The notes beneath the pieces are model-generated. The model saw only the letters and a program-made list of their open reading frames with translations. It was not told the DNA's origin and ran no database searches. 4,878 bases of DNA, taken from positions 1 through 4,878 of IMG/VR virus record IMGVR_UViG_2558860274_000011, one strand, 5' to 3'. Positions 1 through 4,878 of this stretch are shown here, piece after piece. The position numbers and the translations under genes were made by a program. This stretch comes from a virus. Its lineage: Duplodnaviria > Heunggongvirae > Uroviricota > Caudoviricetes. Position 1 is the stretch's first letter. Every line of letters starts with the position of its first letter.

Positions 1-914
1 GCTGCGTGAGCAGTACGGGGTCGGACCGCTATGCAGCGAACTGCATATTGCCCCGTCAACGTATTACCACTGTCAGCAACAGCGACATCATCCGGATAAA
101 CGCAGTGCCCGTGCGCAGCGCGATGACTGGCTGAAGAAAGAGATACTGCGCGTATACGATGGGAATCATCAGGTATACGGTGTGCGTAAAGTCTGGCGTC
201 AGTTGTTACGGGAAGGAATCAGGGTAGCCAGATGTACAGTGGCGCGCCTCATGGCGGTTATGGGACTTGCCGGTGTTCTCCGGGGTAAAAAGGTCCGTAC
301 GACCATCAGCCGGAAAACCGTTGCCGCAGGCGACCGCGTAAACCGTCAGTTCGTGGCAGAACGACCTGACCAGCTGTGGGTGGCTGATTTTACTTACGTC
401 AGCACATGGCAGGGCTTCGTCTATGTGGCGTTCATCATTGATGTGTTTGCCGGATACATTGTGGGGTGGCGGGTCTCATCGTCCACGGAGACGACATTCG
501 TGCTGGATGCACTGGAGCAGGCGTTATGGGCCCGTCGACCGTCCGGCACGGTCCATCACAGTGATAAAGGTTCTCAGTATGTATCGCTGGCCTACACACA
601 GCGGCTTAAGGAAGCCGGATTACTGGCATCAACAGGAAGTACAGGCGACTCGTATGACAACGCGATGGCGGAGAGCATCAATGGTCTTTACAAAGCGGAG
701 GTAATACACCGTAAGAGCTGGAAAAACCGTGCAGAAGTGGAACTGGCCACACTCACGTGGGTGGACTGGTATAACAATCGACGATTGCTGGAAAGGCTGG
801 GCCATACTCCTCCGGCAGAAGCAGAAAAAGCTTATTATGCTTCCATCGGAAACGATGATCTGGCAGCCTGAGTTCACAGATAAAACACTCTCCAGGAAAC
901 CCGGGGCGGTTCAT
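1..914 (+). mobile_element. 3' portion of an IS3-family insertion sequence (IS629/IS1203/IS3411-like by recollection), truncated by the window start
   Basis: The transposase OrfB frame is open from the window edge to 871. It is followed by about 40 bp ending ...CCCGGGGCGGTTCA at 914, consistent with an IS3-family terminal inverted repeat (5'-TG...CA-3' ends). Sequence character changes immediately after 914. The exact end and subgroup are from memory and not verified; the left end is outside the window. Confidence 0.8.
2..871 (+). CDS. IS3-family transposase OrfB (DDE integrase-type catalytic subunit), 5'-partial at window edge
   Basis: The frame is continuous from position 2 (LREQYGVGPLCSELHIAPSTYYHC...) into the listed ORF 182..871. 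Translation contains the DDE/RNase-H-fold signatures typical of IS3 OrfB: WVADFTYV (first D), HSDKGSQY (second D) and DSYDNAMAESINGLYK (E). Stop codon at 869-871. OrfA and the frameshift site would lie upstream of the window. Confidence 0.95.
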   Translation: MREQYGVGPLCSELHIAPSTYYHCQQQRHHPDKRSARAQRDDWLKKEILRVYDGNHQVYGVRKVWRQLLREGIRVARCTVARLMAVMGLAGVLRGKKVRTTISRKTVAAGDRVNRQFVAERPDQLWVADFTYVSTWQGFVYVAFIIDVFAGYIVGWRVSSSTETTFVLDALEQALWARRPSGTVHHSDKGSQYVSLAYTQRLKEAGLLASTGSTGDSYDNAMAESINGLYKAEVIHRKSWKNRAEVELATLTWVDWYNNRRLLERLGHTPPAEAEKAYYASIGNDDLAA

Positions 915-1603: not shown

Positions 1604-1864
1604 TTAATTCTGAGATAAAGGCAAACTCATCTGATTGTTTCCCCTGTGTGAAGCTGGCAGCTCATGCCACGGGATACCTTCTGAAGAGTGAACGCCGGAG
1701 GCGTGTTTTGATGTGAATTTATGGAAAGCTTCCAGTGTTGAGAAGCATACGCCGCATTCCAGATTGTTACACTGGTAATACTTTTGCCGCACGGTGTTTG
1801 AATCATTTTCCGGACGACTGGTGCGGATACGGGCAGATGCGCCACAAAGCGGACAACGGAACAT
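1604..1864 (-). CDS. ogr: Ogr/Delta-family zinc-finger late-gene transcriptional activator (P2 Ogr-like), 86 aa
   Basis: Translation MFRCPLCGASARIRTSRPENDSNTVRQKYYQCNNLECGVCF... shows the Ogr-family CxxC-N24-CxxxxC zinc-binding pattern and the ARxRTSR motif. It aligns by eye with P2 Ogr as I recall it (MFHCPLCQHAAHARTSRYITDTTKERYHQCQNVNC...). A strong GGGAGGT Shine-Dalgarno lies 5 nt upstream of the ATG. The protein is about 14 aa longer at the C-terminus than the ~72-aa family norm. Confidence 0.85.
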   Translation of the reverse strand: MFRCPLCGASARIRTSRPENDSNTVRQKYYQCNNLECGVCFSTLEAFHKFTSKHASGVHSSEGIPWHELPASHRGNNQMSLPLSQN

Positions 1865-2390: not shown

Positions 2391-2408
2391 GGTATCAAAA
2401 AAGATACC
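2391..2408. promoter_or_regulatory. Perfect inverted repeat GGTATC-N6-GATACC, candidate operator just upstream of the XRE regulator gene
   Basis: GGTATCaaaaaaGATACC lies 16 bp upstream of the 2424 start codon, in the divergent intergenic region between the gpD fragment and the regulator. A further TGGTAT copy sits at 2351-2356, next to a TGATCA palindrome. This is a typical arrangement for an autoregulated HTH repressor operator, but it is inferred from symmetry only. Confidence 0.3.
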
Positions 2409-2423: not shown

Positions 2424-2828
2424 ATGAAAAATGATATTGGTCAGCGGTTGCGTGAGGAAAGGGAAAGATTGGGACTTAGTCAAGTTGCCATGAGCGACAT
2501 TGGTGGAGTCAAAAAGCTAACTCAGCTTAGATATGAGAAAGGAGATAGCTTTCCTGATGCTGCGTATTTGGCAGCGCTGTCTCGTTTTGGCCTTGATGTT
2601 CAGTATGTTGTGTTGGGAATTCACTCACCTGAAACTTATAACGATGATGAGCAGGAGTTGATTACTCGCTTTCGAGCAGCTTCGTTAGATGTGAAAAACG
2701 CGGTGATTGGGGCTTTAAAAGGTGCGATCAGTGAAAAGGAAACTCAGCCATCAGGACGTGAGTTAAATATTTCTGGTGGTAATAACCGTATCGCTGGTCG
2801 TGACTATAACGAAACTAAGGGTAGGTGA
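2424..2828 (+). CDS. XRE-family (Cro/CI-type) helix-turn-helix transcriptional regulator, 134 aa; candidate immunity repressor of the element
   Basis: The N-terminal ~65 aa (IGQRLREERERLGLSQVAMSDIGGVKKLTQLRYEKGDSFPDAAYLAALSRFGLDV) matches the XRE HTH consensus architecture. AAGG lies 8 nt upstream of the ATG. It is the first gene of a same-strand operon ending in the integrase, analogous to the P2 C-int arrangement. The C-terminal tail carries the motif GGNNRIAGRDYNE. Confidence 0.85.
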   Translation: MKNDIGQRLREERERLGLSQVAMSDIGGVKKLTQLRYEKGDSFPDAAYLAALSRFGLDVQYVVLGIHSPETYNDDEQELITRFRAASLDVKNAVIGALKGAISEKETQPSGRELNISGGNNRIAGRDYNETKGR

Positions 2829-2843
2829 TAGTAGGGAGGTGAC

Positions 2844-3494
2844 ATGGCCGTCAACTCAAACGGTTCAAACAATCGCGTTGCTGGGCGTGATTTTCACGAA
2901 AAGAATATTCAGATAGAGCGATATGATGGTTCTCATACCGTCAATATCGCAATCCCTTCGAATAATGATGATGACGATCGCCCTTTGCTTAAGGCTCAGC
3001 GTAAGGAGCTAAATAGCTTGGTTGCTGCTATTGCAGAAGCTAGCAATACTGAAGCGTTTATTATTTGGCAAAAAGTACATGCGGAGATTGGTGTAGCTGG
3101 TATTGATGATATGACAGTAAATCAATATAAAACAGCGGAGAGTTTTCTGCATGCAATGCTTGAGCGATGTAAAGATCATGATGCCTGTAAGGCTCTTGTA
3201 AGTTTATTACTACGTAACAGTGAAGACTGTGGACTTCGACAAAAACTTCTGCGGTATTGCCATATCAATTTCGGTACAGGACGTTTAAACGATCTTACTC
3301 GTTCTCAGTTACAGTCTGCATTGTCGTGGTTAGAGCAACAATCGGCATCAAGCCACACAGAGAGTTCGACCTTACCAGAAGTCCGACTTCGTGCTTCAGA
3401 ATTAATCCGACTTTATCCAAAAGAAATAATATTCTTTATCTGCGTAGGGGTTTTGGTAGGCGGTGTCATTTCTAGGGCGTTTTTTAATTTGTAA
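2844..3494 (+). CDS. Hypothetical protein, 216 aa: predicted cytoplasmic domain with a single C-terminal transmembrane anchor; function unknown
   Basis: Strong Shine-Dalgarno GGGAGGT 5 nt upstream of the ATG. The C-terminal segment IIFFICVGVLVGGVISRAFF is a plausible tail-anchor transmembrane helix. An acidic DDDD patch lies near the N-terminus, which also carries the motif SNNRVAGRDFHE shared with the upstream regulator. The gene is AT-rich compared with the IS and hok regions. I recognise no family. Confidence 0.7.
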   Translation: MAVNSNGSNNRVAGRDFHEKNIQIERYDGSHTVNIAIPSNNDDDDRPLLKAQRKELNSLVAAIAEASNTEAFIIWQKVHAEIGVAGIDDMTVNQYKTAESFLHAMLERCKDHDACKALVSLLLRNSEDCGLRQKLLRYCHINFGTGRLNDLTRSQLQSALSWLEQQSASSHTESSTLPEVRLRASELIRLYPKEIIFFICVGVLVGGVISRAFFNL

Positions 3495-3523: not shown

Positions 3524-3871
3524 ATGAAAGTAAAAAATGTTCAACTATTAGTTACTTTTTTATCTATGTTTTCTTTTTCCGCCGTCGCAATGCCTTTTAA
3601 AACTATTGAACGTGAGAGTTTTAATGGGGTATGGCCATTTAATACTGATGAGGTTCAATTACAGTGTCTTGATGGTAATCCTTATGTGATGAATTTTGAC
3701 GATAATAAGTTATATGCACTTACAGGTTTGGCTCGAATAAAAGGTAAAACATTTGGTGCGTTACCGTTAGATAACAATAATCCATTTTGGCTAGATAATG
3801 ATGCCGCCCCAGGGTTAAAAAAGAGTCTGGGGGATGTCACTAAGGCTGCATTTGATTTATGTGATAAGTAA
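3524..3871 (+). CDS. Hypothetical secreted or periplasmic protein, 115 aa, with an N-terminal Sec signal peptide; function unknown
   Basis: Shine-Dalgarno GAGGT 6 nt upstream of the ATG. The N-terminus MKVKNVQLLVTFLSMFSFSAVA has a basic n-region, a hydrophobic core and an AVA cleavage motif. The mature part has two Cys (possible disulfide) and is rich in N, D and P. The gene is markedly AT-rich. No family recognised. Confidence 0.75.
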   Translation: MKVKNVQLLVTFLSMFSFSAVAMPFKTIERESFNGVWPFNTDEVQLQCLDGNPYVMNFDDNKLYALTGLARIKGKTFGALPLDNNNPFWLDNDAAPGLKKSLGDVTKAAFDLCDK

Positions 3872-3876
3872 CTAAA

Positions 3877-4878
3877 ATGTCGGTTCGTAAGATTCCATCA
3901 GGTAAATGGCTTTGCGAATGTTATCCCTACGGGGCATCGGGAAAACGCATTCGTAAACAGTTTGCGACAAAAAGTGAGGCGCTCTCTTATGAGCGCCGTT
4001 TAATGAATAGTAGAGTTGGAGACGAGTTTCAAGATGGTTCTGGTCCTCGTCTTTCTGAGTTGATTGCTCGTTGGTTTGAGATGTACGGTAAAACCTTGTC
4101 CTCTGGTGCAGAGCGCAAAGTCAAACTTGAGGCGATTTGTTCCAGGCTGGGAGATCCATTTGCTTCTCAGTTTGACAAAAATATGTTTGCTACTTATCGG
4201 GAAAGAAGGCTATCAGGAGAATGGAATCCCAAGGGGAAGAAAAAACTTAGTGAAGCAACCGTTAATCGCGAGCAGTCATATCTACATGCTGTTTTTGCCG
4301 AACTGAAGCGCCTTGGGGAGTGGTCTGGTGAAAACCCCCTGACTGGTATTCGCAAGTTTCGTGAGGAAGAAAAGGAACTGGCGTTTCTGTATGTAGATGA
4401 GATTGAACGCCTTCTGATTGCGTGTGATGAGTCACGGAATAAAGATTTGGGGGTTGTTGTCCGTATTGGGCTTGCGACGGGTGCTCGGTGGAGTGAAGCA
4501 GAAGGATTAAAGCAATCTCAAGTACTGCCCGGTCGAATCACATTTGTTAAAACTAAAGGAAAGAAGAACCGCACTGTACCGATTTCACCTCAATTGCAGG
4601 CTATGCTTCCTAAAAAACGAGGAGCGCTATTTTCACCATGTTATGAGGCTTTTGACGCTGCAATTAAGAGAGCGAAGATCGAGCTTCCTGATGGGCAATT
4701 AACTCATGTGCTACGTCACACGTTTGCCAGTCATTTTATGATGCGGGGCGGAAATATTCTTGTGTTGCAAAAAATACTGGGGCATAGCGATATAAAAATG
4801 ACTATGCGTTATGCGCATTTTGCTCCAGGTCATTTAGAGGCTGCTGTTGAATTGAACCCTTTTGACAATAGAGGGTAA
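3877..4878 (+). CDS. int: Tyrosine site-specific recombinase / phage integrase, P2-Int-like, 333 aa, complete (stop at window end)
   Basis: Translation shows the catalytic signature of tyrosine recombinases: LATGARWSEA (Arg), HVLRHTFASHF (HxxR) and MTMRYAHFAP (Tyr nucleophile). It also has blocks I recall from P2 Int (GKRIRKQF..SEA, RITFVKTKGKKNRTVPIS, GGNILVLQKILGH). The ATG is 5 nt after the upstream stop, suggesting translational coupling. TAA at 4876-4878. Confidence 0.95.
   Translation: MSVRKIPSGKWLCECYPYGASGKRIRKQFATKSEALSYERRLMNSRVGDEFQDGSGPRLSELIARWFEMYGKTLSSGAERKVKLEAICSRLGDPFASQFDKNMFATYRERRLSGEWNPKGKKKLSEATVNREQSYLHAVFAELKRLGEWSGENPLTGIRKFREEEKELAFLYVDEIERLLIACDESRNKDLGVVVRIGLATGARWSEAEGLKQSQVLPGRITFVKTKGKKNRTVPISPQLQAMLPKKRGALFSPCYEAFDAAIKRAKIELPDGQLTHVLRHTFASHFMMRGGNILVLQKILGHSDIKMTMRYAHFAPGHLEAAVELNPFDNRG

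Follow-up and report, generated by a model that had tools for sequence, protein, structure and literature searches.

The repressor and its membrane partner

The window analysed here is the complete 4,878-bp stretch of record IMGVR_UViG_2558860274_000011, a remnant of a P2-like prophage (Peduoviridae, Xuanwuvirus-type) of E. coli that adjoins yecA. We focus on the first two genes of its lysogenic operon, which encode an XRE-type repressor and a tail-anchored membrane protein (in the following, the partner). The C-terminus of the repressor and the N-terminus of the partner carry similar peptides, and such matched pairs recur in further prophage lineages. The feature is a paired terminal signalling motif in an undescribed context, i.e., a phage immunity repressor next to a tail-anchored membrane protein. 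Coordinates are collected in Table 1.

Table 1. Features of the window with position, strand (+/-) and supporting details (aa, amino acids; AF2, AlphaFold2; HTH, helix-turn-helix; ORF, open reading frame).
Feature	Position	Strand	Details
IS3-family transposase orfB fragment	182-871	+	rve, HTH_21; enters from the window's left edge, beside the prophage end
Hok/Gef-family ORF, 46 aa	1273-1413	-	hydrophobic, MSQKSLTAITFCVTVILIIWMLHGSLCEIRMSF...; Pfam PF01848 E=3.7e-7, above gathering score
ogr	1604-1864	-	
gpD, last 123 codons	1907-2278	-	
Intact lysogenic operon (repressor, 216-aa protein, DUF2511 protein, integrase)	starts ~2326		
Perfect palindrome GGTATC-N6-GATACC, candidate operator	2391-2408		upstream of the repressor gene
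Promoter-like site TTGACA-17-CAAAAT	2414->2386	-	overlaps the palindrome
XRE-type prophage immunity repressor gene, 134 aa	2424-2828	+	ORF, HTH matches, synteny, AF2 model
Repressor C-terminal motif LNISGGNNRIAGRDYNE	2763-2813	+	residues 114-130; then TKGR and stop codon
Stop codons TGA TAG TAG	2826-2834	+	consecutive, in frame
Shine-Dalgarno sequence GGGAGG of the downstream gene	2834-2839	+	4 nt before ATG at 2844
Tail-anchored Flk_N-family protein gene, 216 aa	2844-3494	+	ORF; NCBIfam Flk; Pfam PF27202 Flk_N (precomputed)
Partner N-terminal motif VNSNGSNNRVAGRDFHE	2850-2900	+	residues 3-19; cognate copy of the repressor tail motif
Possible degenerate second repeat IQIERYDGSHTVNIAIP	2907-2957	+	residues 22-38; MAFFT alignment, by eye, low confidence
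Helical Flk_N core	2979-3359	+	residues 46-172; confident all-helical in AF2
C-terminal transmembrane anchor	3417-3488	+	residues 192-215; AF2 helix; hydropathy maximum 2.42 at residue 194
DUF2511 protein gene	3524-3871	+	Pfam DUF2511 28.3 bits vs. cut-off 21
P2-type tyrosine integrase gene, operon end	3877-4878	+	Pfam Int_N 5e-32, Phage_integrase 2.5e-22

An earlier note on this DNA had called the first protein an XRE regulator, which is supported by domain matches and the AF2 model. The HTH region of the repressor matches the P22 C2 repressor (E=9e-7, PDB search) and ICEBs1 ImmR (PDB 7t8i; E=4e-5). Further matches are found to Pfam HTH_31 (E=8e-5, below gathering score) and, weakly, to the NCBIfam RstR family (E=4e-6, well below cut-off). 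The model comprises an HTH domain (residues 1-66), helices from 74 to 105 and a disordered tail (106-134) at a predicted local distance difference test (pLDDT) value below 50. The C-terminus reads ...LNISGGNNRIAGRDYNETKGR. With regard to its location, the repressor gene holds the position of P2 C or 186 CI, i.e., it lies ahead of int and is transcribed away from the cox/Arc-like genes. A deletion has removed the cox side from the window itself, and the position was judged from gene order in intact prophages (phage 520873 and the C3 prophage of E. coli). Judged by this position, the first protein is the immunity repressor of the prophage. No Peptidase_S24 domain is matched in it (Pfam, NCBIfam), the HTH being followed only by two helices and the disordered tail. 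Without such a self-cleavage domain, induction would therefore need another route.

The second protein, termed a membrane protein in the earlier note, indeed has a C-terminal hydrophobic helix (192-215), and it is therefore taken to be tail-anchored and to face the cytoplasm. Its N-terminus reads MAVNSNGSNNRVAGRDFHEKN; residues 1-40, with the motif among them, are disordered in the AF2 model (pLDDT <50). In both proteins, the low-pLDDT segment with the motif adjoins a well-folded domain. The partner matches NCBIfam Flk (PRK10715) over residues 37-166 (E=8.6e-16), but scores 58.1 bits against an equivalog cut-off of 353, such that there is no full-length match above the curated cut-off. It belongs to phrog_5825, a family of uncharacterised function. 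We find no NTPase or repeat domain in it (Pfam, NCBIfam, AF2 checks), no peptidase domain (Pfam) and no match among the PADLOC defence models. A profile search for distant homologues with a diverse partner alignment found no members outside the same enterobacterial group. The chromosomal Flk representatives, 329-416 aa in length, have a Pro/Gly-rich MQP..GPG start without the motif; many chromosomal Flk proteins match the partner query in two stretches. The possible second repeat behind the partner's motif aligns with the single motif of Mu-like relatives, again by eye and with low confidence, and related genera show a clear second GRD at this position, e.g., FVGRDLVNISIP. Docking of the N-terminal motif onto the Flk_N core was considered and rejected, as it is absent from the AF2 model and the pairing persists without Flk_N (see below).

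A shared peptide on both sides of the stop codons

Read in one frame, positions 2745-2912 give QPSGRELNISGGNNRIAGRDYNETKGR, the three stop codons and GGDMAVNSNGSNNRVAGRDFHEKNIQ. The two motif copies, LNISGGNNRIAGRDYNE and VNSNGSNNRVAGRDFHE, are identical at 10/17 residues, and their Smith-Waterman score is 62 compared to 21.9 +/- 4.4 for shuffled N-termini (z=9.0). That is, the core NNR[IV]AGRD[YF]xE described in the earlier note is present, and the similarity spans more than was stated there, namely 17 residues. Translation and sequence also confirm that both ORFs lie in one frame and are separated by TGA-TAG-TAG (2826-2834) and a GGGAGG ribosome-binding site; the gap between the two genes is 15 nt. 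Within the core NNRxAGRDxxE, 5/8 identical residues differ at the third codon position, in agreement with the claim that the copies differ mainly at synonymous positions. Over the full window alignment, the same codon is used at 4/10 identical degenerate positions. Only two copies of the motif are found in the whole 37.6-kb genome of phage 520873, and no third copy occurs in these 37.6 kb nor in the 17.6 kb of the C3 prophage.

Lineage-specific matching across loci

Loci were located with the repressor alignment. This yielded 25 non-redundant motif-sharing loci from P2-like and Mu/BcepMu-like prophages of Gamma- and Betaproteobacteria (hosts: Escherichia, Brenneria, Gilliamella, Pseudomonas, Aeromonas, Jeongeupia, Bordetella, Burkholderia, Oleiphilus and others). 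The loci of distant relatives are Mu/BcepMu-like transposable prophages, and the pair therefore spans two unrelated phage architectures. For these 25 loci, the repressor tail and the downstream N-terminus agree inside each locus, while the motif varies between lineages. The cognate scores are 3-13 standard deviations above those of shuffles. Alignments of segments this short are imprecise. As a negative control, chromosomal XRE genes beside a response regulator show z values of about 0 in most loci (maximum 2.4). For instance, the Brenneria tail QVFHGDINGQFAGNKIVN is followed by the N-terminus QEFNGTAQGQFSSRDIIN, the Gilliamella tail GQIAGGNIY by EQIAGRDIY, the Pseudomonas tail QQFNGPVGTVTSGDVVN by QQFHDRVHQVAAGDIKN and the Jeongeupia tail TVDYGNAQIGQASAGDIVN by TVSFGGAQIDQAAAGDINN. 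The observation is thus considerably more general than the earlier note had it.

We also compared the cognate assignment with permuted partners. For 14 non-redundant Flk_N-type loci, the cognate scores sum to 633 compared to 417 +/- 49 under permutation, a value reached by 1/50,000 permutations; for 37 loci, the observed sum was reached by 0/20,000. Aligning the tail profile with the N-terminus profile (hhalign) gives a probability of 95% (E=3.5e-8, 21 columns) with the profile consensus Q.F.G.VGQ.AG(R)D(I).N, and an [AS]G[RG]D core is common to nearly all motif classes. Since paralogous segments that drift independently should score equally within and between loci, the higher similarity within loci shows concerted evolution.

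At the nucleotide level, the same codon is used at 153/310 identical degenerate residues (49%; 34 loci), and the nucleotide identity is 0.46-0.81. Gene conversion is ruled out by these values. The scrambled synonymous sites point to selection on the peptide, which is what the earlier note had proposed in place of a recent duplication. In both families the motif is conserved among homologues: all 120 listed partner homologues begin with M.VNS.G..NR.[AS]GRD[FY].EN, and the enterobacterial repressor homologues, among the 120 homologues listed, end with [IV]N[VI][ST]G..NR[IVA]AGRD[YF][NH]E.KK. The earlier note had named absence of the motif from homologues of either protein as what would speak against the feature; as the motif is kept in both families, no such absence is observed.

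The pairing is not tied to one kind of partner. In several lineages the partner is not of the Flk_N type but a 140-178-aa protein with a central transmembrane segment or, in Jeongeupia, one of 306 aa, and the Aeromonas partners (325-329 aa) show only a weak Flk_N match; most of these loci keep the pairing. The motif is therefore independent of docking to an Flk_N core. Constant throughout are the repressor, some membrane protein, and terminal peptides that match.

Some further observations concern individual loci. In L011, L020, L027, L043, L055, L056 and L065, the motif-bearing partner is not Flk_N but a protein of 140-174 aa whose hydrophobic segment is central; the Aeromonas and Jeongeupia partners (306-329 aa) have theirs at about residues 196-251, followed by an extra C-terminal region. 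Motif-like repressor tails, e.g., MVFHGKVGQQIHGDI, are also present in L022, L033 and L035, where a matching downstream N-terminus was not found within 3 kb; these partners may have been lost or may be located elsewhere. With regard to the repressor ends, the last 8 residues are basic in 21/25 non-redundant loci (KKNK, RRRKTK, RKRKR etc.; L003-L069 plus the window), with a mean charge of +2.1. This basic end lies beyond the shared motif and is absent from the partner. It could contact DNA or lipid, or could form a charged cap. The partner's linker is weakly acidic in 14/25 loci, and charge complementarity was not used as evidence.

Reading frame, spacing and the split-gene question

Among the motif-sharing loci, the repressor and partner genes stand in frame relation 0, 1 or 2, and their spacing ranges from -20 to +34 nt with one outlier at +62. 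Overlaps of 4 nt (ATGA/GTGA) are common. Such tight spacing and overlaps indicate co-translation. Within the P2-like subgroup, gaps are mostly 9, 15 or 18 nt, but gaps of 10, 11, 13 and 25 nt are found as well. Relatives end the repressor gene with one stop codon; the E. coli version has three or four in a row. Given that frame and gap vary even among close P2-like relatives, the shared frame and the triple stop of the window are incidental.

This bears on the explanation that an ancestral single gene was split in two. If the similarity were a functionless relic of a split gene or a tandem duplication, read-through of the stops might yield a membrane-tethered repressor fusion. The in-frame arrangement in the window and in most P2-like relatives (gaps of 9, 15 and 18 nt) would suit such an origin. 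However, fused single-ORF versions, for which the earlier note had proposed to look, are found in neither family: in the partner family, no representative cluster (0/92, from a set of 1.84 billion proteins) has an N-terminal HTH extension, and none of the 120 repressor homologues listed is fused to a partner. In other loci the genes often stand in frame 1 or 2 or overlap by 4 nt, gaps that are no multiple of three occur in close relatives, and three or four consecutive stops lie between the genes in the E. coli version. Furthermore, distant phage families have kept the peptide although its synonymous sites are close to saturated. The split-gene or relic reading is thus largely refuted, and we regard it as very improbable.

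Resemblance to amyloid-signalling motifs

Compared to the rest of the proteins, the motifs are enriched in G (2.4-fold), N (4.0-fold), Q (1.7-fold) and V (1.7-fold) and depleted in L (0.1-fold), K (0.55-fold) and P (0.58-fold); I is not enriched (0.94-fold). In BASS and fungal amyloid motifs, Q, N, G, V and I are enriched and K, P and L depleted (Dyrka et al., bioRxiv 10.1101/2020.01.06.895854), such that the composition bias of the phage motifs agrees with that reported for both groups. The motifs of amyloid signalling in fungal and bacterial NLR systems were discovered by requiring a motif shared by one protein's C-terminus and the adjacent N-terminus (Dyrka et al., bioRxiv 10.1101/2020.01.06.895854). 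In the phage pairs, too, a C-terminal motif of one protein recurs N-terminally in the product of the adjacent collinear gene, and the short spacing of BASS/FASS pairs is also present (-20 to +34 nt, many 4-nt overlaps).

We compared the motifs directly with two BASS families, using BASS1 and BASS2 profiles built from published supplementary sequences and not the authors' own profile hidden Markov models. BASS1 is represented by ASGSARIYQAGRDQHITER, BASS2 includes NQFNGPVGKNAYIDTVHGD and ISGGTQNGPVLQGRDFS (Streptomyces), and phage motifs that look alike include NISGGNNRIAGRDYNE and QQFNGPVGTVTSGDVVN. Against composition-matched shuffles, the mean best Smith-Waterman score with BASS2 gives z=9.5 for tails and z=7.3 for N-termini, and with BASS1 z=2.9 and z=7.4, respectively. 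In hhalign, only the comparison of partner N-termini with BASS2 stands clearly above column-shuffled profiles, with a score of 17.2 that was reached by 0/200 shuffles. Taken together, the sequence comparisons suggest a moderate similarity of the phage motifs to BASS families.

The proteins that carry the motifs are of a different kind. The partner with the N-terminal motif is not an oligomerising receptor (NACHT/NB-ARC NLR or TPR sensor) but a Flk_N tail-anchored protein, and the protein with the C-terminal motif is not a death or immune effector (Bell/HeLo, TIR, CHAT) but an XRE/P22-C2-type HTH repressor. As the defining receptor and effector domains are missing, we do not file the pair as a member of the BASS family. 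We nevertheless consider that it may work like the amyloid-signalling family while standing outside it.

A possible mechanism and its alternatives

Given these observations, we propose that the cognate peptides are a homotypic beta-type association tag by which the membrane protein would bind the repressor, a reading of the sequence data for which we see the chances as evenly balanced. Two G/N/Q/V-rich, beta-prone motifs of about 17-21 residues, one in the disordered repressor tail and one in the disordered cytoplasmic N-terminus of the partner, would be produced from the same transcript. Homotypic beta pairing would bind the two motifs, such that the membrane protein captures repressor molecules; as amyloid-signalling motif pairs do, the two might stack as single rungs of a beta-arch or solenoid. 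Once clustered or activated, the membrane protein would titrate or inactivate the repressor. That the partner serves the lysis-lysogeny switch as a latent antirepressor or sensor located in the membrane is a tentative extension, which we hold with less confidence. Physical binding of the two proteins, a cross-beta (amyloid-like) structure of their complex and the direction in which control runs are all part of the proposal. A stronger version assumes prion-like templating in part of the lysis-lysogeny switch of proteobacterial temperate phages, i.e., a membrane nucleator with a one- or two-rung amyloid-signalling motif turns the repressor, by way of the matching tail rung, into an inactive cross-beta assembly, or the repressor checks the nucleator; it appears rather unlikely. 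Among the three explanations listed in the earlier note (a split gene, a shared recognition tag, mutual interaction), mutual interaction seems to fit best, with class-matched motifs in each locus that are kept when the partner is not of the Flk_N type.

Several findings weigh against the association tag and its likeness to amyloid signalling. AF2 monomers leave both motifs as low-confidence coil. Residue-by-residue covariation is absent in the close P2-like subgroup, where a repressor Y often meets a partner F and V-A meets I-S; covariation holds at the level of motif classes. Lineage-matched motifs would also be expected if both proteins bound a co-evolving third factor. A constitutively co-expressed antirepressor would need some further means of being held inactive. 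The aligned motif length is 17-21 residues, while about 25 aa are typical of BASS. The tail profile does not match BASS2 significantly in hhalign (22/200 shuffles reach the score), and against the BASS1 profile 7/200 (N-termini) and 13/200 (tails) do so, the latter not significant. Finally, no NLR/STAND or Bell/HeLo domain is found in either protein by Pfam/NCBIfam.

The interaction could also run in the opposite sense, with the repressor tail capping the membrane protein. In that case, loss of the repressor would free a self-assembling, membrane-damaging effector, and the pair would be a toxin-antitoxin, abortive-infection or superinfection-exclusion device, whose release could be triggered by induction, host shut-off or superinfection. 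This resembles the activation of HET-S or Bab, and it also resembles XRE-type antitoxins whose disordered C-terminal tail grips the toxin. In every case the partner is a membrane protein, irrespective of its further domains, and known amyloid signalling ends in a membrane-targeting effector; however, known membrane effectors carry the motif C-terminally and are encoded upstream, an order that is reversed here. The genes are translationally coupled like toxin-antitoxin pairs, the basic repressor end (21/25 loci) could block further stacking as a charged cap, and lysogeny modules often carry membrane exclusion proteins. On the other hand, the partner has one C-terminal anchor with almost no periplasmic part, it resembles neither Bell/HeLo nor holins, PADLOC gives no match for it, and chromosomal Flk is a regulator and not a toxin. 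We consider the capped effector unlikely.

Both motif copies are terminal, exposed and disordered, as are degrons and linear motifs, which would suit a docking or degradation tag for a third party (a host protease, a chaperone or other). As a decoy, competitor or adaptor, the membrane protein would then determine how stable the repressor is, much as lambda CIII shields CII from FtsH; similarly, the Mu repressor carries a C-terminal ClpXP determinant. The lack of fine-scale covariation in the P2-like subgroup fits a single reader that constrains two sequences independently, and the common [AS]G[RG]D core of nearly all classes points in the same direction. Yet, Pseudomonas alone has the QQFNGPVGTVTSGDVVN, QIFHGPVGQAVEGG and GGHAAGRDM classes, Gilliamella has two classes, and Enterobacterales have NR.AGRD and F.G...GQF.G. 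In each case both proteins switch class together, which a conserved host reader would not predict. No third phage protein carries the motif, and its composition is that of beta-assembly motifs, unlike that of the known ClpX, Lon and FtsH tags. We therefore judge the shared recognition tag of the earlier note, for which several motif classes within one host genus are unfavourable, to be the less likely explanation, and a third-party tag to be quite improbable.

Comparison with known systems

With regard to gene arrangement and composition, the proposed association tag is closest to the compared amyloid-signalling pairs in a number of respects. The BASS1-10 Bell/NLR pairs of Actinobacteria and Cyanobacteria also share a short motif between the upstream C-terminus and the adjacent N-terminus, with a short gap or overlap, the same shift in composition (G/N/Q/V up, L/K/P down) and, in some cases, pseudo-repeats in one partner. 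They differ in that the phage pair has neither a NACHT/NB-ARC receptor nor a Bell effector but a repressor and a membrane protein, and in that it is found in unicellular Proteobacteria hosts among the genes of a phage lysogeny switch and not in a defence island. In the fungal HET-S/NWD2 pairs, one protein likewise carries a one-rung motif and the other a possible two-repeat version, with a rung length of about 21 residues. These pairs are eukaryotic, have cell death as output and involve other domains, and the two-repeat side would here be the downstream partner with the N-terminal motif.

The Bab/Agp system (BASS11) is a prophage-borne abortive infection system of E. coli in which amyloid templating signals (Ibarlosa et al., bioRxiv 10.1101/2024.11.07.622273). 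As in our pair, adjacent genes of an E. coli prophage region share a terminal motif, and one protein is at the membrane. In contrast, Bab is a Bell-like pore-former with a C-terminal motif and Agp a 1094-aa TPR-GreA/B-C-PIN sensor, while here the membrane protein has the N-terminal motif and the other partner is an immunity repressor; repressors and HTH proteins are absent from the respective paper (Ibarlosa et al., bioRxiv 10.1101/2024.11.07.622273).

Among regulatory systems, ICEBs1 has the same order of XRE repressor, modulator and integrase in one lysogenic operon (ImmR-ImmA-Int), and the HTH is related to that of ImmR. ImmA is a soluble metalloprotease that cleaves ImmR, whereas the partner has no peptidase domain, is membrane-anchored and shares its motif with the repressor. 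A precedent for switching off a repressor by aggregation is given by RstC of CTX-phi/RS1, which drives RstR into aggregates, and the repressor studied here is weakly RstR-like (NCBIfam E=4e-6). RstC, however, is a small soluble satellite-phage protein that shares no motif with RstR and is not membrane-anchored. The flagellar regulator Flk of Salmonella and E. coli resembles the partner in its helical Flk_N domain, its C-terminal tail anchor and its mostly cytoplasmic bulk, but the chromosomal protein is longer (329-416 aa) and lacks the N-terminal motif. No description of this repressor/membrane-protein motif pair was found in the literature.

The pair may thus couple the lysogeny switch to the membrane in a way that has not been described so far. 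For P2-like and Mu-like prophages with such repressors, which have no self-cleavage domain, the peptide link offers a possible path of induction from the envelope to the switch. Should the motif function as BASS motifs do, the reach of amyloid signalling would go beyond immune cell death to phage gene regulation, and the naturally orthogonal motif classes could be used for engineering protein-protein coupling. If the prion-like version were true, this would be the first amyloid-signalling pair that targets a transcription factor, and it would hint at an evolutionary connection between the BASS motifs found in bacterial NLR immunity and the regulatory modules of phages. Even a simple beta-strand handshake would be a new accessory component of phage immunity regions and would give a functional handle on the uncharacterised phrog_5825/Flk_N phage proteins.

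Prophage context

The two halves of the window lie about 33 kb apart in complete genomes, at opposite ends of one P2-like prophage, and are here brought together at a deletion junction at about 2326-2328 that joins ogr and the gpD 3' end to the repressor module. Because of this junction, the window is identified as a prophage remnant. Replication and structural genes are gone except for the gpD 3' end, while the repressor, partner, DUF2511 and integrase genes are intact. The junction was found in 0/5,426 complete E. coli genomes. The DUF2511 gene, which belongs to the lysogenic operon as well, is confined to the P2-like group, and yecA is the next gene after the integrase (complete genomes). 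Between 2424 and 3771 we find no promoter-like site, and no terminator-like site occurs anywhere in the operon. From their sequence and location, the palindrome upstream of the repressor gene and the minus-strand promoter-like site could plausibly be the operator and the early promoter of this switch. P2 C recognises direct repeats, and this repressor type may therefore differ.

The Hok/Gef ORF is placed between the insertion sequence element and ogr, at the prophage end. No Sok-like RNA is found near it by Rfam, which gives no matches across the window.

Phage 520873 (NC_049344) is the only isolated phage found with the module, next to weak matches in Ralstonia phages; no characterised model phage is among them. 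In phage 520873 (L088; 2459-3065), the partner gene is frameshifted, with an unannotated ORF that continues for 58 aa behind the motif, and the integrase gene is broken into two parts. The phage thus represents a poor assembly or a decaying prophage and is therefore unsuitable as an experimental model. The repressor module itself is present in 521/5,426 complete E. coli genomes, and it also occurs in many prophages of Klebsiella, Salmonella, Pseudomonas and others.

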